Below are positions 5,272-61,516 of a stretch of DNA of 64,000 nucleotides, one piece after another (position 1 is the first letter of the stretch; the number at the start of each line of letters is the position of its first letter). The DNA is taken from the NCBI RefSeq assembly GCF_004010195.1, contig NC_057718.1, forward strand, positions 45,057,907-45,121,906, written 5' to 3'. Below the pieces are notes generated by a model. The model did no database searches. It saw nothing but the letters and a program-made list of their open reading frames with translations, and had not been told where the DNA came from. The DNA comes from Chiloscyllium plagiosum. Its lineage: Eukaryota. A program made the position numbers and the translations under genes.

Positions 5272-5484
5272 AAGGAGAAAGTGAGGACTGCAGATGCTGG
5301 AGATCAGGGCTGGGAGTGTGGTGCTGGAAAAGCACAGCAGGTCAGGCAGCATCCGAGGAGCAGGAGAATGTTTTAGGCATAAGCCTTTCATCAGAGATCA
5401 TCAGGAATTATGCCCAAAACATCGATTCTCCTGCTCCTCAGATGCTGCCTGATCTACCATGCTTTTCCAGTACCACACTCCCCA
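5272..5484. mobile_element. Foldback mini-element of two inverted Penelope-like terminal repeats, inserted in an old CR1 fragment
   Basis: Inverted arms (gtgtggtgctggaaaagcacagcaggtcaggcagcatc / gatgctgcctgatctaccatgcttttccagtaccacac); degenerate target duplication tcttcctgtaatat 5257-5270 vs tcttcccataatgt 5486-5499. Confidence 0.85.
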
Positions 5485-5954
5485 CTCTTCCCATAATGTG
5501 GTGACTGGAAGTATAAATATTGTCCAGCTGAGACCCACCTCTGCCTGTGCTGCTAACCCACTACAGACTTCTGCAAACCCTTTGCACTGTTGCCTACTTG
5601 TAGTCAGGGTCACTCCTTGATTCTGACCCCCTGTTTGCTATTGATCTAGCAAAAGCCAATGCCTCAACTGTGGTACTGTCAATCAAAAGATTTGGCAGTC
5701 TTTGATTGGGCAGCAGCTCGTGGTAAATGGGATTTCCAATCCTAGGTTCTTAATCTTGGAAAATATCCACCTCCTGAGTGGAAGTGGCAATGTAGACCTC
5801 TTGTCAGCTTTCTAACCAACACGCAAGAATCTCAATGCCTTGATAAATTCCAGACCCTGGGTATCATTTTCAACCTTCCTCAAAACATTCAGTTGAATTA
5901 GACAACCATGACCTTTTGTCTGCTTTAAGGTGAGTTAATGTTGTAGTTTTTTTT

Positions 5955-16419: not shown

Positions 16420-16560
16420 TAGGAGAAAGTGGGGACTGCAGATGTTGGAGAGTCAGAGTGGAAAAGTGTAGCACTGATAAAGTACAGCAGGTCAGGCAAC
16501 TTCCGAAAAGCAGAAGAGTTGACATTTCGGGTAAAGGCCCTTCATTAGGAATGTGGGGGT
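16420..16560 (-). mobile_element. Single Penelope-like terminal repeat with decayed hammerhead motif
   Basis: aggagaaagtggggactgcagatgttggag...gacatttcgggtaaaggcccttcattagg. Confidence 0.8.
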
Positions 16561-19500
16561 GGTAAAATCCACTCAATCCCAGGAACCGTAGTATTGCTGT
16601 TTTGCTTTTGCATTCCATGAGGCCACCTGTCCATGTCCAATGACATGTCCCATGAAGGTGGCTTGCGCTTTGGAAAATTCACTTTTAGCGAAGTTTATCA
16701 CCAAGTCTGCCTCCCAAAGTCGATCAAGCGATTCTGATAAATGTTACAAATGTTCTTTCCATGTATGACTAAAAAAATCACAGGTCATCAATATCTATGA
16801 CACAGTTGAGTAATCTGGCAATTACCTTATTGGTTAGTCTCTGAAATGTAGCTGGCGCATTTTTCATACCAAACGGCAGTCCATTTGGCATTACGAAGAT
16901 GTGTTGTTGTCTTCGCTCTTTCAGAAAAAGGTACCTGCCAGTTCCCTCTGAGCAAATCCAACTTATAAATATAAGTTGCTTGTCCTACCTTTTCAACACA
17001 GTCTTCCAAACGCAGAATCGGATATGCGTCAGACTTTGTAACTGCATTGATTTTGCGATAGTTCACACATAGTATTAGGTGCCATCTGGTTTGGGAGCAA
17101 TTACTATGGGTGAGCTCTAGTTGCCGTAACTCACTTTGACTATGTTGTCTTGAAGCATGCATTCAATCTCCATCTGAACCTGTGCCAACTTTATAAGGTT
17201 ATGCCTATAAAAGCATCTCCTATATGTACATCATGCATAATTAGGTTAGTATTCTCAGCTTATTTCCAGGTATCTCCCCACGTGATCGTAGTAACTCTTT
17301 AAGGACATGTTGATTTTCCTCTGGAAGGTAACTCTAATTTATCCCAATTTTTGACAACTTCCTCATTGTCCATCTTAATTTGTGGAATGTCCAATTCAGA
17401 ATCCTCTGAACTTGGTCCTTCCCTCTGTGTTGTAACCAATAATACAGACTCCTTTGGCTTTCCTTCCCTGTCAAAATACCTATTGAGCATATTCACATGA
17501 CACACTCTGTGAGATTTCTTTCTGTCTGAAGTCCTTATCAAATAGTTCACCTCACTAATTTCCTTTCAACTTGATAAGGTCCACTAAACCTTACTTTTAA
17601 AGGTTCATCTATCACTGGAAGTAACACTAACATCTTATCTACGATAGCAAAATTGCCTATTTTTGATTTCTTGTGTGCTTCCTGTTTCATTGTATGCTGT
17701 GGTACTTTTAAATGCTATCTAGCCAACTCACCTATTCGATTTAATCATTCCCAAAAATTTGACACATAGTCCAAATATGTGGTCTCTGAATTCTGACTTG
17801 CCAATTTGTCCTTAATCAATTTTAGTGGTCCTCTCACTTCATGCACAAAAAACTAATTCAAATGGACTGAATTTGGTTGATTAATTTGCTGTATCCAAAT
17901 GAATTCCCTTATCACAATCATCTGGATAATCTTGCCCTCAACAGGATCATTAATGTCTACTGCCACCTTTCAAACACTCCCTGCAATTCTGGATGGTATG
18001 CAGTAGATTTGAATTGATTTATTCCTGAGCTGTCCATAACTTTCTTGAATAATTTTGATGTAAAGTTTGACCATTGATCTGATTGTAGCTCTGTGGATAG
18101 TCCATATCTAATGAAAAATTTGAGTAATTCCACTACAATCTTTTTCACTGTGATATTGCATAACAGATTGCCTCTTGAAATCGACTGGACACATCCATTA
18201 TTGTTAACAAATATTGATTTCCACTTTTTATTTTAGGCAGTGGTCCTATGCAATTAATTAAGACTCTTGTAAAAGGTTCCTCAAATGCAGGAATAGGTAT
18301 TAAAAATGTGTTTTTTATTACTGCCTATGGTTTTACAATTACCTGACATGTATAACATGTCTGGCAAAATTTAACTGCATCCTTGTGCATTCCAGGCCAG
18401 TAAAAATGTTTTTGTATTTTAGTTTGAGTTTTTCTCACCCCTAAATGATCCCCTATTGGTAGTTCATGTACCACTCGTAACGCCTCCTTCCTATAATCCA
18501 CTGGCAATACGACTTGATGAATTTTTGACCATTTCTCATCTGCCTGAATATGTGATGGTCTCCATTTCCTCGTTAAGATATCATTTTTAAGATAGTAGCA
18601 TTCAGGGATAACATTCAGATTTTTTCTGTGTATGCCTTTTAAAACAATTGCTTTAAATTTTCTTCTTTCTGCTGTAACTCAGTTAATTTATCTGAGCTAA
18701 AGGTGTCAGCTGTGTCATCTTTCTGTTCCTGATTCGTCTCAACCATCTGATCAAACAGGATCTCTGCTAATTCCACTTCAACTTTCTTATCTGTACTCTT
18801 TGATGTCTCCTGTTTCAACTGGTGACTTTGTGACCCTGTTACCATACAGTTGGGAAAAATCCCAAGATATGTGTCTTGCAATATTTCAGCTTCCTGAGTT
18901 TTCATTGGTTTTCAACCACAGTAGGCAGTACTTCTATCTGTGAACCAGCTATATTGTTAGCAAGAACAAATTGTATTCCTGAAGCTGAGAGTTTGTCCAG
19001 TACTCCTACCACTACTTCTTCATCCTTCACTCAACATTCTAACCTCACTCTACACAATTGAGTGCTTCTTGTCTTACCATGAATTCTCGTTACTAGTACC
19101 TTTTCTAACAATAGCCCTTCATAGATACATATCTCCTTATCTTTAAACTTCAAAGATTGAGAAGATCCTGTATCTCTTAATATTGTAACCTCTTTAACTA
19201 CAGCTCCTGGCCTATGCGAGTAAACTTTACCTTCACAGGTATATGGTTTAAGATGATATGGCACTTCCTCCTTAACTAACCTTTGACCAGCTTGTACATT
19301 CTGGTGCAGCTTTCTAGCCTCCACTGCAGCTCTCCACTTCCACTCCAACAAAATTCAATGGCATATCCTGTTTTCCTACATCTGGCTTCCCACTGCTTTT
19401 CCTAGCCCACCAATACTGCAATTTCATGTGGCCTACTTTATTGCAGTGAAAGCACCAGAGCTTTTTAACTTCACATTCTCCTTCAAGGGTTTCCTTTTTA

Positions 19501-19933
19501 CCCTGTGGTAAGTTATCCCTATGATCTTCACCGAGATCTACCTTTCCCTTTCCACATGAGAATCTCTCTTTTCCCCAATTTCTATCCTTCATGGATTGAA
19601 ATTGATTTTGGAAGCCAAACTTTGATTTATGGACCAACTCATAATCATCAGCCATTTCAGCTACTAATCTTACCGTTTTAACTCTCTGCTCTTCCACATG
19701 AATTCCCACTACTTCAGGAAGTGAATTTTTGAGCTCTTCCAAAATAATTGTCTCTCTAAGGGTGTCATGGGTTTGCTTTACTTTTAATGCCCTTATCCAC
19801 TAATCAAAATTGCTTTGTTTGATCCTTTCAAACTCAATGTAGGTTTGACCAAGATACCTCCTTAGATTCCTAAAATGTTGACTGTAGGCTTATGACACAA
19901 GTTCACATGCACTTAAGATGGCTTTCTTCATCT

Positions 19934-24065: not shown

Positions 24066-24200
24066 TCAGAAGAAGGGTCACTGGACATGAAATGTTAACT
24101 GCTCTCTCTCCATATAGATGCTGCCAGACCTTCTGAGTTTTCCCAGCAATTTATGTTTTTGATTCTGATTTCCAGCATCTGCAATTCTTTATTTTTTATT
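24066..24200 (+). repeat. Old Penelope-type terminal repeat (second family) with decayed hammerhead motif
   Basis: cagaagaagggtcactggacatgaaatgttaac...ctgatttccagcatctgca. Confidence 0.7.
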
Positions 24201-33205: not shown

Positions 33206-35353
33206 GTTTTTTCGGTTGGCACAGGTTCATAAGGAGATAGAGCGCATGCTCCAAAATGGCATAATCGAAGCGAGTTACAGTGAGCTCACCGTAGTCATGG
33301 TGCCAAAGCCAGATAGTACTCAACGGTTATGTGTGGACTATTGCAAAGTCAACGCCGTTACAAAGACAGACGCATATCCAATTCCAGGGTTGGAGGACTG
33401 TGTTGAGAAAGCATGACAAGCAACTTACATTTCTAAGTTGAACTTGTTCAGAGACTATTGGCAAGTACCTCTGTCAGAGAGAACAAAGGCAATTTTGGCT
33501 TTTGTAACACCAATTGGACTATATCAGCTCAAAGTCATGCCATTTGGTATGAAAAACACTCCAGCCACATTTCAGAGACTGACTAATAAGGTCATTGTCG
33601 GATTGCCCAACTGTGTGGTGTACATTGATGACCTAGTGATTTTTAGTCACTCATGGAAGGAACATTTACATCATTTATCAGACTTGCTCGATCAACTTCG
33701 GAAGGCGGGCTTTGTGGTAAACCTAGCTAAAAGTGAAGTTGCCAAAGCCCAAGTCAATGTCCTGGAAAATGTTATTGGACATAGACAAATGGCCACACAA
33801 GATGAGGAAACAAAAGTAGTTGGGGAATTTCCCACACCGCCAATGAAAAAAGCAGTACTGGGGTTGAGTGGATTTTACCAAAAGTTTGCATCAAACTTTA
33901 GCAGTGTGGCTGCTCCACTCACCGAATTGTTAAAAAAAGGGCAAAAAGTTTCAGTGGACAGCAGACTGTCAAAAGGCATTTGACAGCCTAAAATCTGTGT
34001 TAACCACACCCCAATATTAACCACACCAGATTATATTAAGCTTTTCAAGTTGGCTATCGATGCCAGTGATGTAGGCATGGATGCAGTACTCCTGCAGGAA
34101 GATGACGAGGGAATAGAAAGACCCATCGGGTATTTTTCCAGGAAGTTGAACGTTCATCAACAGAAATATTCAATGGTGGAGAAAGAGACTTTAAACTTGG
34201 TGTTGGCATTACAACATTACAGTGTTTATATTACCAGCAATGCATTTGAGACAATCATATATACCGATCACACGCATTGACATTTGTGGAAAAACCTAAG
34301 GACAAAAACGCCAGACTGTTTAAATGGAGCTTGTTGTTGCAGCCATTCAATTTGACAATTGTGCATGTGGCAGGTTGGGAACACATGATCGCCAATGCAT
34401 TGTCAAGATTCCAATGAGATATTGAGGCATTCGGTGGTGGGTGTACCATGGCCTGAATTTGCATTTGGTTGTGCATGTTTGCATGTTTATAGTCAGTCTA
34501 GTATATATATGTGTGTGTTTAGACTTGTAACCGGGTTTTGAAGGGTTAAAAATGAAGCCATCTTTTGGTATTGATTGTTCTTTTTTTTAAAAAGGGGGAA
34601 GGTGTCACAAAGCTAGTCGCGTTTTCTAAAAGCTGTTCCTTTGCTCAAGGAGAATCCATCCTTGATTTTTTTCAGAGGGGCAATAAACCGGTCTGGGCTC
34701 CAATCAGTCTGGTTTGGTAGAGATGAAAAATATTTTGAGAGGCCTTTTGTTTATATGGAAACAGATGAGACTTCAGGCGAAAGTGGTCATGTTTTAGAAG
34801 TGACCTGTATAATGAAAAGGGAGTGGTCAGCTCTTTAGCTAAAGCTGAGCTGAGCTGATCAGTTTTAGTTCAGTCTTGAACATGGAAATTCAACAGGGAC
34901 CGGTGTGGAAACTCTCTCTCTTTCTACCCTTAAACTTCAACCTGTAAGCATGTGTTCCATTTATACTGGATTTTAAAGGGAGTTTGGTTATTGGGACTGT
35001 TGTGTATATTTGGAACAACATAATTAAGTCTAGTTGGATAGGCTGAGTTCTGTAGGGGTTCTTTATTCTGTTCCTTGTGGTTCATTGTGTAATACATTTT
35101 TGTCTGTTTTAAAATCTAGTAGTCAACCCTAGTTGGATAGGCTGAGTTCTGTAGGGGTTCTTTATTCTGTTCCTTGTGGTTCATTGTGTAACGTTGTGAA
35201 TACATTTTTGTCTGTTTTAAAATCTAGTAGTCAACCTAGCTAACTTAACCTGGGTAATTTTCACTGTACACTTACCGAAACAAATTGCAAAGTTATGATC
35301 TGGGGCTGCCTGCCCCCAAGAATGTTTTGAGTGGTCTGGCCTAGTCCATAACA
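33206..35353 (+). mobile_element. Gmr1-like Gypsy 3' half: RT-RNase H, PPT and 3' LTR
   Basis: RLCVDYCKVN, VMPFGMKN..YIDDLVIFS, AIDASDVG..YSMVEKE..YTDH; PPT aaaaagggggaagg 34589-34602; LTR 34603-35353 (TGTCAC...CCATAACA); no integrase between RNase H and LTR. Confidence 0.92.
35030..35237. repeat. ~100 bp tandem duplication inside the LTR
   Basis: ctagttggataggctgagttctgtaggggttc...tctagtagtcaacc occurs twice; the second copy has a short extra segment. Confidence 0.92.
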
Positions 35354-38174: not shown

Positions 38175-38369
38175 TAGCAGAATATGAGGATGCAGATGCT
38201 GGAGATCAGAGTCAAAATGTGTGGTGCTGGAAAAGCACAGCTGCTCAGGCAGCATTGAAGGAGCAGGAGAGTCAATGTTTCGAGCATAAGCTCTTCATCA
38301 GACTGTCCTGCTCTTCAGTTGCTGCCTGACTGGCTGTGCTTTTCCAGCACCACACTTTTTGACTCCAAA
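38175..38369. mobile_element. Foldback Penelope-derived mini-element with perfect 13 bp target duplication
   Basis: ctctctggtcaac at 38162-38174 and 38370-38382; inverted arms; hammerhead-like motif on minus 38274-38301. Confidence 0.9.
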
Positions 38370-39029
38370 CTCTCTGGTCAACATCATGAGTCACCAACTG
38401 TCCAAGTCTGCTCGTTAGTGTCGAGTTTATACCCTTCTGGCTCATCTGCTAGAATAGATATATCCAAAGTTAGTGCTTAAGAGATATGGTAAATAATGCT
38501 TCATGGTCTGGCATATTAGACACTGTTCCTCCTCAAGCAAATCTAGAAGAAGAAAGGAGAAATATTGGCTTGTGTCTTGGTAAGCCAACTTCATGTCCAA
38601 CATTTAGGGCTGAGTCTCACGTTGTTTTGGCTAAGTGCAAGTTAGGTTAATTGTTTTTGGAGAGTTTCTCGCTGTGAGGCCTGAAGGATTTCCCACTATA
38701 ATGCGATACTCACTGGATATGTGCCATAACACATCCCTGATGCCCACACCATCTTTTAAAGGCCATTGTGCACACCACTGCTGTTTTGTCAATTACACAG
38801 CAAAGCCATGCTGAGGCATAAACATTGCCAATGAGCAATGCCTCACTAAGTTGATTAGAATGTACATCAAAAAGTAAAATTTGTAACTAAGTTCTGTTTC
38901 TGAGCTTTTCATAACAAGAGAGTTTGGGTGTGTCGATCACAACTCTGATTGGCAGATGCAACTGAGTTCATGTTCAATAACTAATTAAATGTCACAATTT
39001 ACTCTTACAAATATCAATATGCCTCTTGG

Positions 39030-43007: not shown

Positions 43008-43217
43008 AGGAGAAAGTGAGGACTGCAGATACTGGAGTTCAGAGCTGAAAAATGTGTTGCTGGAAAAGCGCAGCAGGTCAGGCAGCATCCAAGGAGCAGG
43101 AGAATCGACGTTTTGGGCATAAGCTTTCCTGAAGAAGGGCTTATGCTCGAAACGTCGATTCTCCTGCTCCTTGGATGCTGCCTGACCTGCTGCGCTTTTC
43201 CAGCAACACATTTTTCA
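43008..43217. mobile_element. Foldback Penelope-derived mini-element
   Basis: Near-perfect inverted arms spanning 43046-43217, plus one-sided tail 43008-43045. Confidence 0.92.
43129..43156 (+). ncRNA. Minimal type I hammerhead ribozyme motif
   Basis: CTGAAGA-A-GGGC-ttat-GCTC-GAAAC-GTC. Confidence 0.7.
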
Positions 43218-46560: not shown

Positions 46561-47745
46561 GTAACATGTTCACTCTGAAGATAAGTAGCAAGGATGTATA
46601 ATATATCACCTATCAAGATCACTGCGTTCATAATAGATACCCTAGATGACCAGTTCTTTTACCAGTTTCAGGAGATACCGAAGTAAAGCTTACTAAGGTC
46701 ATTGAGACCTATCATTATCACTTTTCTGCCCTTTAGGTTTCAAATTTACTTGTAATTTATCAATTTCCAGTAATGAGTAGATGGTGAAACTTCCTGCTCC
46801 ACTCATATAACTCTGAAAAGATTATCTGAATGTTCTATTGAGCAATAAAAATGATTTATCTTCCAGCTACATTTCTTCCTTTTATTTGTGGAAGCAAAAT
46901 TGTGAATTTGTTATAACTGAGGGACAACTTTAGCTTTATTATCTTAATACGCACTACATAATGACGCTTGCAAAAAGGATCCTAAGAAGTCTTCAATTCT
47001 TTTGATTTGTGAAGATTGTTTATTGGAGGATAGGGCTGCAAGGATGTTTTAGATTGTTGATGGCTGATATTTGCACACCAGCTTTCCCAGACCAGACAAA
47101 CAAATAAATGGCTAACTTAAGCTTTGAGTAGAAACCATCTGTACCACAAGGAAGAAAGCATTTTCTCACTGCAAGACCGGTTCAAGTTGCCCATTACCTT
47201 ACTAGCTGAAAGAACCTGGAAATAAACTGCTCCCTAATGAAATATGAACATACCAGCAAAGTGCCCCAAATTATGCGCACATTCATGGCAATTCATGTCC
47301 CTCACCTAGCCTCCATGATTGAGTTAAGCTTCATGTGGAGAAAGCAGAGTCTAATGATGACACAATGGGAGCAATTTTTACCTCCAACAATGTAATGTTG
47401 ATTACTTGTAAATATATAACATATGAACATAGGAGCAAGAATAATTTATTCAGCTCCTCTATAGAACCATGGAATCATCAAAAAGTTACAGCGCAGTAAG
47501 AATCCATTCAACTCATCATGTCTGTGCTGGCTAAAAAATAACTTGTAAGGATGTCAACCCCTCCAATACTTGTTCTTGAATTCTGCTTATTGTACCTATT
47601 CTCACAGTCCTACTCCAACTAGAACACCTGTGTCGTCCCTTTACTTTAGGAGAACGTGAGGCCTTCAGATGCTGGAAATCAGAGTTGAGAGTGTGGTGCT
47701 GGAAAAGCACAGCAGGTGAGGCAGAATCCAAGGAGCAGGAGAATC

Positions 47746-47773
47746 AACGTTTCAGGCATAAGCCCTTCATCAG
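47746..47773 (-). ncRNA. Minimal hammerhead ribozyme motif in the PLE terminal repeat
   Basis: Minus strand CTGATGA-A-GGGC-ttat-GCCT-GAAAC-GTT. Confidence 0.6.
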
Positions 47774-47816
47774 GAGTAAGGCTTGTGAGCCAAGGCGGGG
47801 GGGGGGAGAGATAAAT

Positions 47817-47822
47817 NNNNNN
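47817..47822. other. Assembly gap (6 N) in a poly-G context
   Basis: nnnnnn in sequence. Confidence 1.
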
Positions 47823-50221
47823 GGGGGGGTGAAGCTTGGGGAAGGCAGCTGAGAATGCGATAAGTAGATGAAGGTGGGGGAAAAGGTGATCGGTTGGACA
47901 GGAGGGTGGAGCGGATAAATGGGAAAGACGATGGACAGGTCAAGAGGGCCGTGCCAGGTTGGAGGTGTGGAACTGGGATAAGATGGGGGGGAGCAGAAAT
48001 GAGGAAACTGGCAAAATCCACATTAATCCCATGTAGTTGTAGGTTCCCAAGGCAGAAGATGAGGCGTTCTTCCTCCAGGCGTAGGGCGGTGAGGGTTTGG
48101 CAATGGAGGTCCAGGACCCGCATGTCCTTGGTAGAGTGGGAGGGGGAGTTGAAGTGTTCAGCCATGGAGCAGTGGGGTTGGTTGGTGTGGGTGTCCCAGG
48201 GATGTTCTCTGATACAATCTGCAATTTGGCGTCCTGTCTCCCCAATGTAGAGGAGACCACATCGGGTGCAATGGATAAGCAGTGGAGGTACAGGTAAATT
48301 TTTGTCAGTTGTGGGAGGATCTTTTGGGGCCTTGGATGGAGGTGAGGGGGGAAGTTTGGGTACAAGTTTTGCATTTCCTGCAGTGGCAGGGGAAAATGCC
48401 AGGAGTGGGGTGAGGCCTGGTAGAGGGCATGGATCTGACAAATGAGCCGCGGAGGGAATGGTCTCTCCAAAATGCTGATAGAGGTGGGGAGGGAAATATA
48501 TCCCCAGAGATGGTGATGGAGAGCTCCATGAAGGGGAGGGAGGTGTCTGAGATGATCCAGGTGAATTTGAGGTTGGGGTGAAAGGTGTTAGTGAAGTTGA
48601 TGAACTGTTCAACCTCCTTGGAGCACGAAGTAGCACAATACAGTTATCAATGTAGTGGAGGAAAAGTTGCGGGATGGTGCCGGTGTAGCTGCGGAACATA
48701 GACTGTTCCACGTACCCAACAAAGAGGCAGGCGTAGCTGGGGCCCATGCAGCCAGGCAGATATAGGGTAGGGTACTTGTTGGGATAGTGTGACAGGAAGA
48801 AAAGGAGGGTTTGGAGGCCTTCATCATGGCGGATAGATGTGTACAGGGACTGGATATCCAGGGTGAAGATAAGGCGTAGGGGGCCGGGGAAACAAACATC
48901 TTGGAGGAAGTGAAGGACATGAATGGTGTCCCAAATGTAGGTGGCGAGTTCCTGGACTAAGGGGGAGAGGATGGCATCAAGGTATGCAGAAGTGAGTTCA
49001 GTGGAACAGGAGAAGGCCGAGACAATGGGTCAATCGGGAAAGTCGGGTTTGTGGGCCCACCTCCCACCCTATCTTCTGTAAAAACGCCATCCCCTATTCC
49101 CAATTCCTCCACCTCTGCTGCATCTGTTCCCAGGATGGCCAATTCCACCAGAGAAAATCCCAGATGGCCGCCTTCTTCAAAGATCGCAATTTCCTCTCCC
49201 AAGTGGTCAATGATGCCCTCCAGCGCATCTTCTCCACTTTCTGCACCTCCGCCCTTGAACCTCATCCCTCCCAATGCAACAAGGAGAGAATCCCCTAGTC
49301 CTCACCTTCCACCCCACCAACCACTTATACATCGCATTATCCTATGCCACTTCCACCACCTACAAACAGACCCCACTGCTAGGGATTTATTTCCATCCTC
49401 ACCCTTATCAGTGTTTTGGACAGTCCATTCCTTCCGCGACTCACTTGTCAGATCCACGTTCCCACACAAGCCCTCAACCCACTCCCGGTACCTTTCCCTG
49501 CCACTGCAGAAAGTGCAAAACCTGCACCCACACTTCCCCCCTCATCTCCGTCCAAGGCCCCAACGGATTCTTCCATATCCAACAGAAATTTACCTGTACC
49601 TCCACTAATGTCATCTACTGGATTTGTTGCACCCGATGTGGTTTCCTCTACTTCGGGGAAACAGGACGCCAACTTGCAGATTGTTTCAGAGAACATCTCT
49701 GGGACTCCTGCACTAACCAACCCTATTGGCTGAACACTTAAACTCCCCCTCCTACCCCACCAAGGACATGCAGGTCCTGGGTCTCCTCCATTGCCAAATG
49801 ACGCATGGAGGAAGAATGCTTCATCTTCCGCCTTGGGATCCTACAACCACACGGGATTAATTAGGATTTCATCAGTTTCCTCATTTCCGCTCCCCCAACC
49901 TTATCTCAGTCCCAAACCTCCAACTCTGCACTGCCCTCTTAACCTGTCATTGTCTTTCCCAAACATCAGCTCCACCCACCTCTCCAACCTATCACCTTCT
50001 CCCCCACCTTCATCTACCTATCGCATTCTCAGCTACCTTCCCCCAAGCCCCATCCCCTCCCATTTATCTCTCAGCCACGCCACTACCTCCTCCCCAACAG
50101 CCCACAAGCTTCATGCCTGATGAAGGGCTTACGCTCAAAATATCAATTCTCCTGTTCCTCGGATGCTGCTTGACCTGCTGTACTTTTCCAGCACCACACT
50201 CTCAACTCATCCCTTTCCTTT

Positions 50222-54369: not shown

Positions 54370-54667
54370 CTAAAAAACACAATAAAGATAGATGTCAAAA
54401 CACAAAATTATATCATATGATATGAGCAAATATCATCAATCATTTTCTATTTATTATGAGGGAATGCAATCAAACAGGTGAAATATGAATAGGAAACTGC
54501 AGTCCAACAGACAGGAGAAAATTCCATATCAACATTTGCTTTTGTGGCTGTGCTATACACTAAAGGAGCTAATTATCTGGAAGTATACTTTTAAGAAAAG
54601 CTTTTGACATGATTTTTTTTGTAAACACTCTGCAACAAGGCTCTCATATTCTAGTCATGTCACTAGT

Positions 54668-54802
54668 CTGGAAAAACACAGCAGGTCAGGCAGCATCCGA
54701 GGAACATGATGTTGCAGCACAGCTCCTCGGATGCTGACTTACCTGCTGTGCTTTTCCAGCACTACACTCTTGACTCTGATCTCTCGTCCTGACTTTCTCC
54801 TT
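54668..54802. mobile_element. Foldback Penelope-derived mini-element, opposite orientation, hammerhead region deleted
   Basis: ctggaaaaacacagcaggtcaggcagcatccgagga / tcctcggatgctgacttacctgctgtgcttttccag, with the tail on the right. Confidence 0.85.
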
Positions 54803-59153: not shown

Positions 59154-60350
59154 CTAAAAAATCGTCATTGATAAAAAATTCTTCAATAATTGTTTAGGTA
59201 CTTTTATTTTCCAAATAAATGTGTTCATTCAAGTTTGTAAACCATTTAATAACTTCTTAGATATTAAAAAAAAATTCTCTCCTTCCTAGGCTCAAGAAAA
59301 TCACATGATGAAGAATAGAACTAGAATTAATCTCAAAACACTTTAAAAAGCATCTAGGTAGAGCTTTTTCCCAAGTAAACTTTATTCTTAAAATTTGTAA
59401 AAGTTATATACAAACATTTTGACTTGAAAATTCAATGTCAAAATACAGCAGGTTCCATTTTTATGTGTCTCAATACAACTTTCGGCCCAATTATCTGTTT
59501 CTTTCAATCTATTCCTATTCATAAAGAATAAATTAATCTCCAGTTAATGTATTACATTGCATACAACTGTATACAATTAATTACAATTAGTTCACAGCAG
59601 AGGTGGGTCATGAAGTGCTGCAATTCAGCATTTATATACAGTACTTGATAAAAGTTTATAGAGGAAGTACTGAAATGACATTGGTTCAAATGCTAATAGA
59701 TCACAGTCCAGCAGCAGGGAGAGGCGCCTTTTGGCCCAAACTGATCTGTGCCGACCAATATGTCCATCCACACTAACTCCATTTCCCTGCACTTGGCCCA
59801 TATACTTCTAAACCTTTCCTGTCCAAGCATTTGTTCAAATGCCTTTTAAATATTGTTAATGGACCCACATCAACCACCCCTCTGCTGGCAGCTCATTCCA
59901 TACACGTACCACCCTCTATGTAAACAGGTTGCCCCTCAGGTTCCCATTTATTCTTTCCCCTCTTACCTTAAACTGATGCTCTCTAGTCCTCGAATCCCCA
60001 ACCTTGGGAAAAAGACTGAGAGTATTCAAACTATCCATGCCTCTCATGATCTTATACAATTCTATTAGATCCCCTCTCAGTCTCCTATTCTCTAAAGAAA
60101 AAAGTCCTAACTTGTCCAACCTCTCCCTCTAACTCAGTTCATGAAGTTCTGGCAACATCCCGGTAAATGTCTTCTGCATTCTTTCCAGTTTAATAACAAC
60201 CTTCCTACAGCAAGGTGACCAAACGAACACAATACTCCCCCAGTGCAGCCTCACCAATGTCCTGTACAACTGCAACATAATTTCCCAACTTCTATACTCA
60301 AATCCCTGAATGATTCAGGCCAGTATGCCAAAAGCCTTCTTCACTACCTT

Positions 60351-60575
60351 TGAGGAAAAAGTGAGGTCTGCAGATGCTGGAGATCAGAGATGGAAATGTG
60401 TTGCTGGAAAAGCGCAGCAGGTCAGGCAGCATCTAGGGAACAGGAGAATCGACGTTTCGGGCATTAGCCCTTCTTCAGCCATTCCTGAAGAAGGGCTAAT
60501 GCCCGAAACGTCGATTCTCCTGTTCCCTAGATGCTGCCTGACCTGCTGCACTTTTCCAGCAACACATTTCCATCT
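60351..60575. mobile_element. Young foldback Penelope-derived mini-element with a hammerhead motif on each strand
   Basis: 91 bp arms 60388-60478 / 60485-60575, one mismatch, 6 nt loop; 15 bp duplication cttcttcactacctt at 60336-60350 and 60574-60588. Confidence 0.95.
60485..60512 (+). ncRNA. Minimal type I hammerhead ribozyme motif (mirror copy on minus at 60451-60478)
   Basis: CTGAAGA-A-GGGC-taat-GCCC-GAAAC-GTC. Confidence 0.75.
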
Positions 60576-61516
60576 TCTTCACTACCTTGTCTATCCGTGA
60601 CTCCACTTTCAAAGAACCATGCACCTGAACGCCAAGGTCCTTCTGTTCCACTACATTCCCGAAGGACCTACCTCTCACCATGAAACTCCTACCTTGATTT
60701 GACTTTCCAAAATGCAACACCTTACACTTATATACATTAAACTCCATTTGCCATTTCTCAGCCCACTTCCCCAGCTGATCAAGGTTCTGCTGCAATTTCT
60801 AATAACCTTCCTCACTGTCCTCGATGCTGCCTGTGTTAGTGTCATTTGCAATGTGCTAAGCTTTTCAGTTCGTTGCCCAGAGATTGCAAACAATTAATTA
60901 GCCCGAGTGCTTGTTTGTAAACATGTCACATTCACTATATTAGAATATGCATGATCGTGGGCACTAGGAAGGATTATTTAGTATAAGCCTTTTCCAGTAA
61001 TTGTGAACAGAGGAAAGCTAGAGAAAGAGACGGGCGGTCAGATTTTTATTTTTAAAAATCACTGCAAATGTGACCCTCTATAGGCTTCAAAACAGAATGG
61101 AACTGGGGAAAAATATTTTGATAAAGCAGGACAATTCTGTTATTTGTAGTAGGTAGCATTTTCACTCCTTTGTACTATTACATATCATTCTAATCATCTA
61201 GTAAATCTGATAATACTTTCTGCTCTTTACAATTGCAAACATTAAAATTAAACTATTTTGCGTTTCTTTTCTGTTCCTGTTTACTGAACAGGTGCATACT
61301 TCCAATGAGAATATCCAGGTCAAATCATACCCTTGAGTTAGACTATTGTACAATGTTTTTATTGGGCAGCATGCACATTAAACTAAAGGTATGCCTGTCA
61401 GATTTGTATAGCATTAAAACCCTGAACTATTTGAACACTTGTCTGTGGTCTGTTTACATCAATAGAAGTCTTAAGTGTAGAAATAAGCTGCTATCCAGAC
61501 TTCACTTAAGTTTTAC

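Follow-up and report, generated by a model that had tools for sequence, protein, structure and literature searches.

An inverted repeat that carries hammerhead ribozyme motifs lies within an intron of the CENPF gene of the shark Chiloscyllium plagiosum. Its presence raises two questions: how such an element comes to be inserted, and whether its ribozymes act on the transcripts that pass through it. The original prediction proposed a functional switch, in which self-cleavage of the CENPF pre-mRNA competes with formation of a long double-stranded (ds) RNA hairpin. Here, the element is traced to a Penelope-like retroelement (PLE), and its form is compared with that of other copies in the genome. 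The window is the whole stretch of DNA that was analysed, 64,000 nt of contig NC_057718.1 (forward-strand positions 45,057,907 to 45,121,906), and positions without a locus number are those of the window. Published sources are cited from the portions available, and statements about them apply to those portions.

The foldback element and its host intron

Pfam family PF10490 is divided between two minus-strand exons, one matching positions 6-22 (E 0.046) and the other positions 22-46 (E 5.6e-10), and together with spliced contigs they confirm the assignment of the host to CENPF; a homologue search for the CENPF exon among longer proteins gave no match, and the identity rests on Pfam. The intron between them (59154..61516, minus strand) is 2363 nt long, has GT..AG ends, and is skipped by contigs of two runs. 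The target of the insertion was a decayed LINE remnant on the minus strand (59916..60798), recognized by its translated frames and very high repeat depth, which from those frames we take to be of the CR1/L2 type. When the flanks of the foldback are joined over a single copy of the duplication, junction-spanning matches are found in 48 other LINE copies. In a search for empty-site polymorphism, none of the contigs of four runs spans 60580-60599.

The insertion is a 223-base head-to-head inverted repeat composed only of PLE end sequence, with no ORF. Its arms (60388-60478 and 60485-60575) are 91 nt each and 99% complementary, with one mismatch and a 6-nt spacer. An extension of 37 nt (60351-60387) is present on one arm only, and the whole is flanked by an exact 15-nt direct repeat, the left copy of which (60336..60350) lies inside the old LINE remnant and the right copy at 60574..60588. 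These repeat coordinates all match the geometry that had been predicted. Two copies of an element end (pLTR) can be distinguished. The tailed copy (60351..60478; minus strand, thus CENPF-sense) carries the 37 nt as a Penelope "tail" at its 3' end, is truncated at C3 of its hammerhead, and has 1 substitution relative to L049, one of the long copies in its subfamily. The tailless copy (60481..60575, plus strand) begins at a 5' boundary shared by many copies, called here the wall (A+1, 60481), and its final 2 nt are shared with the right target duplication. Between the two lies a 2-nt filler, CC (60479..60480), which together with the AG before it matches antisense stem II sequence, likely as a result of microhomology or of a short fold-back copy. 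In all, the foldback differs from L049 at only 2 positions in about 220 nt, which upholds the view that it is young.

The parent element

The proposed link to Penelope can be seen directly: the foldback unit is the hammerhead-bearing 3' end (pLTR) of elements that encode reverse transcriptase (RT) and GIY-YIG domains, and it is also found upstream of such bodies. Within these bodies there are Pfam matches to RVT_1 (E 2.5e-6 and 1.4e-8) and GIY-YIG (E 3e-4 and 5e-4), a DKG motif, and a Cx4CxxC linker before GIY-YIG. A DKG motif and a CX2-5CxxC linker at this place are traits of the Neptune clade, the linker being common to Nematis (PMC8557442), and on sequence the parent element looks like Neptune. 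Read in this way, the foldback is two head-to-head copies of the 3' end of a Neptune-type PLE, one tailed and one tailless.

The long young copies L049 and L065, both of the foldback's subfamily, consist of a tailed copy, an inverted tailless copy and a duplication, with an assembly gap between the copies. A decayed 2.56-kb version of the same architecture is present in the window itself (47648..50209), where a tailed copy (minus strand) with RT/GIY-YIG remnants is joined to an inverted tailless copy (plus strand) and the duplication is 11 nt with one mismatch. Among the sampled copies, of which the long ones have assembly gaps, none was found to be full-length with a pLTR at its 5' end leading into the ORF, and 0/215 tail ends examined continue into shared element sequence. 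Short, C-rich tandem repeats lie upstream of the conserved ORF region at L241:2270-2530 and L125:6008-6270 (both minus strand); such repeats may explain both the assembly gaps and the missing 5' end.

The window also contains six other, older members of the foldback's own family, mostly foldbacks themselves (5273-5500, 16421-16553, 24068-24186, 38185-38385, 43008-43214 and 54667-54792), of which 43008-43214 has its own duplication and sits within a tandem repeat. Decayed frames of LTR type, gag-like and RT-like, lie at 19314-19799 (minus) and 33417-33983 (plus), and several further LINE fragments in the window are again of the CR1/L2 type.

The two hammerheads

Hammerhead motifs are present on both strands, at 60485-60512 (plus) and 60478-60451 (minus), as the original prediction stated, although the two are unequal. 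The plus-strand motif, which is antisense to CENPF, is a complete minimal type I hammerhead (60481..60516) by the descriptor of PMC4209133. Its stem I (60481-84/60513-16) has three pairs and a U.U mismatch (C-G, U-A, U.U, A-U) and is followed by the core (60485-91), a bulged A, stem II (60493-96/60501-04) and GAAAC-GUC, with a predicted cut after 60512. The minus-strand motif (60447..60478) has the core, stem II and GAAAC-GUC, but is without the 5' strand of stem I, where the positions would be G.G, G.A, U.U and A-U; its predicted cut would fall between 60451 and 60450. The pattern of core, stem II and GAAAC-GUC has 4 matches in the window vs 0 in 100 shuffles. A scan with the Rfam hammerhead models, which had been suggested as a check, gave no match at E<=10, the only hits being hairpin-driven microRNA hits below threshold.

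For the plus-strand copy only, the identity as a minimal type I hammerhead is sustained by the core boxes, the bulge, and compensatory changes in stems I and II. The pairs that change are 2.1-1.1 (C-G/U-A), 2.3-1.3 (U-A/G-C), 10.4-11.4 (C-G/U-A) and 10.2-11.2 (G-C/A-U). Across 90 close and 25 old arms, behind which stand few independent lineages, 303/400 cells are paired vs 245 +/- 6.5 in shuffled sets, a figure inflated by relatedness. Because stems I and II change in a compensated fashion between families, the hammerhead fold is under selection in the master elements. Common variants between close subfamilies fall at N7, in loop II and at stem I position 3; the close-subfamily arms were selected for a near-intact core, so that conservation of the core is partly by construction. 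Core conservation among genomic copies, which had been put forward as a test of function, is misplaced as such, since the copies decay neutrally and conservation appears between subfamilies.

Older related families (L034:2281-2479, L099:3377-3426, L106:2851-2900 and others) retain the hammerhead; in them stem II is longer (5-6 bp), the triplet at the cut is GUU and stem I is compensated, and some also form head-to-head pairs. In a sibling subfamily (L041:5051-5176, L195 and L197, and the type found in the L075:5051-5176 region), all 4 bp of stem I are perfect, GAAU follows the cut, and the ORFs are nearly intact, that of L197 having 649 aa; for a cleavage assay this subfamily is the strongest candidate.

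Pairs, tails and copy number in the genome

A search of the genome with the foldback returned 1904 candidates; the 40 that were scored are 93-100% identical, and 30 were retrieved with their own flanks and duplications. The large contigs were then sampled in 157 stretches, each 10 kb long and placed at a round-number position, in sets of 97 and 60 (samples 1 and 2), with a profile of the unit that also picks up older related families. The profile found 244 arms at 194 loci in the first set and 119 arms at 92 loci in the second, and gave 0 matches in the reversed sequence of the first. Over the 1.52 Mb sampled, Ns excluded, the density is about 188 loci per Mb, which, as a rough figure, extrapolates to 650,000 loci and 165,000 head-to-head pairs in the 3.56-Gb genome. 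Such a density would imply 90-bp double-stranded stems in many introns, potential substrates for editing.

The pairs are nearly all of one polarity, 47 head-to-head vs 1 tail-to-tail in sample 1 and 26 vs 0 in sample 2. Their 3' ends are bimodal: among 157 close arms of the first set, 69 end at 122-130 and 69 at 81-104. Both arms could be scored in 29 of the 47 pairs of this set (18/47 were omitted for a low-scoring arm), and 28/29 have exactly one tailed arm, there being 23 pairs of tailed and tailless arms, 5 of a tailed and another arm, and 1 that is doubly tailed. An exact duplication of at least 8 nt flanks 22/29 of the scored pairs, compared with 6/292 random flank pairs; across copies, target duplications are 8-15 bp. 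Junctions between the arms vary among near-identical copies, while the same junction recurs with the tail on either arm. Thus L153/L164 and L160, and likewise the L146 type and L151/L170/L172, share a junction and differ in outer ends or in the tailed arm, and one junction is present in two loop subfamilies. The variety of the junctions and their recurrence with either polarity argue, therefore, that the palindrome is built anew at each insertion rather than copied whole. At the centre of one insertion, L166, a hammerhead segment of about 37 nt is repeated head to tail, and this short duplication could permit a dimeric fold.

The 5' wall

The 5' ends were mapped for 235 arms of at least 60 bits (128 weaker arms were omitted), 3 of which were left out at the edge of a stretch. 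In 65/232 the end lies no more than 2 nt from A+1, a peak found in both samples (43/155 and 22/77), while only 3/232 fall in the 45 nt from -59 to -15; 56/232 arms extend at least 60 nt into the element body. The wall is not absolute, given that 87/232 arms start inside the unit and 21/232 at -14..-3. Simulation of uniform truncation produced no spurious peak at the wall (4 called, 5 true, of 145), and contig joints in separate runs fall at 60480-60484.

Stem I of the hammerhead begins with A+1. In body-linked copies, A+1 is present in 73/76 and the context TC-ATTC in 62/76; TCA+1TTC fits the initiator consensus. The wall is likely to be where the template RNA has its 5' end, on stem I's first base, and this end is in turn likely to be a transcription start at the initiator-like sequence. 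The pLTR of Penelope contains the start site (PMC8557442). With a start at A+1, the hammerhead would lie within the first 36 nt of the RNA. A cap-derived extra G is not seen among the 13 host-joined wall arms, in which the base before A+1 is G in 1/13 and C in 9/13. Just 9/23 host-joined wall arms have a duplication of at least 8 nt, and one of the nine is tail sequence. In the single informative raw-read run (2011 reads, 98% of them continuing into other loci), a weak test, no pile-up of RNA ends was found. A splice acceptor was rejected as the cause of the wall: the upstream AG is about 22 nt off and is absent in one subfamily. At the position where the ribozyme would cut, a second accumulation of 5' ends (8/155 at +31..+35 in sample 1) was not replicated (0/77 in sample 2), and thus cleaved RNA gains no support as the template.

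How the insertion may be made

Taken together, the foldback is probably the shortest form of a Neptune-type PLE insertion, in which both nicked target strands primed synthesis on a short RNA, the copies ran off at the RNA 5' end, and the ribozymes are predicted to be silenced within the resulting hairpin. In this scheme each nicked target strand would prime reverse transcription on a short template RNA, and the two 3' ends would correspond to the pair of internal sites at which RT starts in a Poseidon element of the anole. The 15-bp duplication would represent the stagger between the two nicks. Both cDNAs would run to the 5' end of the RNA or halt slightly before it, and their ends would be joined by microhomology, at this locus AG plus the 2-nt filler. 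In vitro, the anole element cuts and extends both strands, the tail is delimited by two internal start sites, cleavage by the ribozyme requires protein, and insertion proceeds without the ribozyme (PMC11167929); this model is a Poseidon element, and the element here is Neptune-like. A more specific version must be held tentatively, and we would not yet favour it: the stubs may be a genome-wide footprint of the PLE reaction, in which a protein dimer primes on both target strands at two internal sites, 37 nt from each other and close to the 5' end of a capped RNA whose start is the hammerhead's first base, with run-off at its end.

Three rivals were weighed, which rank as stalling or trimming at stem I with fold-back, then a palindrome copied as a unit, then the functional switch. 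That the wall reflects an RT stall at the base of stem I, or trimming of the RNA, with the inverted arm made by fold-back self-priming of one cDNA, seems unlikely. It would account for a wall at the exact first base of stem I and for the lack of a cap-G, self-priming has been proposed for rotifer Penelope (PMC3846280), and the single-arm copies L152, L154, L158, L159 and L163 have at their centres, directly 5' of A+1, 7-13 nt that are antisense to stem II. These fillers, which match stem II even where there is no second arm, testify either to fold-back of the cDNA or to a second arm that was lost, and as the loci were picked for having filler they speak to its occurrence, not its frequency. 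However, stem I is a poor block, its pair probabilities in a single arm being under 10%, and 56/232 arms read through it; fillers of 4-14 nt are rare (1/44 in an unbiased sample); and a single continuous fold-back hardly yields two different 3' ends, each joined to the target. It is much less probable still that the foldback is a palindromic element of the MITE or retrozyme kind, non-autonomous and multiplied in finished form from a small number of masters. Junctions that are identical between copies, as in L001-L003 among others, the very high copy number and the existence of non-autonomous, PLE-derived retrozymes (10.64898/2026.07.22.740005) would fit such an element; the recurrence of one junction whichever arm is tailed, or with other outer ends (L153/L164 vs L160), its presence in two loop subfamilies, and the heterogeneity of junctions otherwise would not, nor would the absence of a tandem array and the asymmetric ends, which are not terminal inverted repeats. 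A MITE or foldback DNA element is disfavoured, there being no fixed symmetric termini and no fixed internal junction copied as a unit, as is a non-LTR retrozyme, whose head-to-tail tandem of hammerhead units is absent; the pairs are head to head.

The switch is the least probable of the three, and we regard it as highly improbable. In its favour, the plus-strand motif is intact, its fold is conserved between families, and PLE ribozymes can be protein-assisted (PMC11167929). However, on either strand the antisense arm precedes the ribozyme arm. Because the head-to-head layout places the antisense arm first, the ribozyme arm would be captured as it emerges; in prefix folds the core is already paired at that point. 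The whole element folds at -205 kcal/mol (z -26.9), opening the core with stem II formed carries a penalty of 36.9 kcal/mol, and the probability of stem II falls from 0.99 in a single arm to about 5e-15 in the whole element. The ribozyme motifs are thus predicted by folding to be locked within the hairpin and off in this copy. In the CENPF transcript the ribozyme copy is truncated at C3 and without half of stem I; the suggested cut, after 60512, would fall in the opposite (antisense) transcript. Published activity is low: minimal motifs gave no cleavage as monomers (PMC4209133), and 1/9 tested dimers cleaved, 8/9 being inactive (10.64898/2026.07.22.740005). The unreplicated excess at the cut site also weighs against the switch, and about 188 similar loci per Mb weigh against a locus-specific role. 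A>G and T>C read differences are also present in the contig runs and are not callable as editing. The effect of the insertion on CENPF is likely to be neutral, that of a 91-bp double-stranded stem in an intron that is spliced away.

Relation to described elements

In the portions available, insertions of EN+ PLEs are described as having an inverted, 5'-truncated copy, a tail of 30-40 bp and a target duplication (PMC8557442; Pen2a_Av, PMC3846280), the tail being described also in PMC11167929. The foldback resembles these in its head-to-head inverted copy, its one-sided 37-nt tail, its 8-15 bp duplication and the hammerhead in the pLTR, and long versions occur in the same window and genome. Unlike those described, it is without an ORF, both arms end at or just inside the hammerhead, and it is extremely abundant. 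Like the Poseidon element PAc of the green anole (PMC11167929), it has two 3' ends one tail apart and would use both target strands; unlike PAc, its parent has the Cx4CxxC linker (Neptune-type). The available text of PMC11167929 contains no description of minimal palindromes or of a 5' wall.

With the minimal type I hammerheads of PMC4209133 the motif shares the CUGANGA core, a bulged base before stem II, G10.1-C11.1, a 4-bp stem I, and no helix III beyond the palindromic ACGU; opposite-strand pairs, too, are reported in PMC4209133, at about 100-700 bp. It differs in its stem II of only 4 bp and in that its two motifs, separated by 6 nt, are antisense to each other. The searched parts of that source and two supplement files hold no shark example of minimal hammerheads. 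The non-LTR retrozymes (10.64898/2026.07.22.740005), as presented in the part available, are likewise short, non-coding and PLE-derived with a type I hammerhead; however, those are head-to-tail tandems, and here the pair is head-to-head with a junction that is fresh at each insertion. The architecture and the ribozyme have thus already been described. Of the minimal form and the wall, no account was found in a search of the openly accessible literature that took in passages of PMC6155905.

Implications

As a regulator of CENPF the element is irrelevant: by extrapolation, similar stubs number some hundred thousand, and the ribozymes of this one are predicted to be inert where they lie. The value of the finding is mechanistic and concerns the way in which PLEs generate tails and inverted copies, and the function of their hammerheads. 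In the portions available, PMC8557442 describes the inverted copies, the tails and the role of the hammerhead as unclear, and PMC11167929 as unvalidated. The wall at stem I, the rule of one tail per pair, and the lack of copies starting at the cut site lead to exact predictions for RNA-end and in vitro assays. If a capped RNA does start at the hammerhead, the hammerhead would be a self-decapping module at the transcript start, with the uncleaved RNA serving as the template, and PLE ribozymes would have a testable role.
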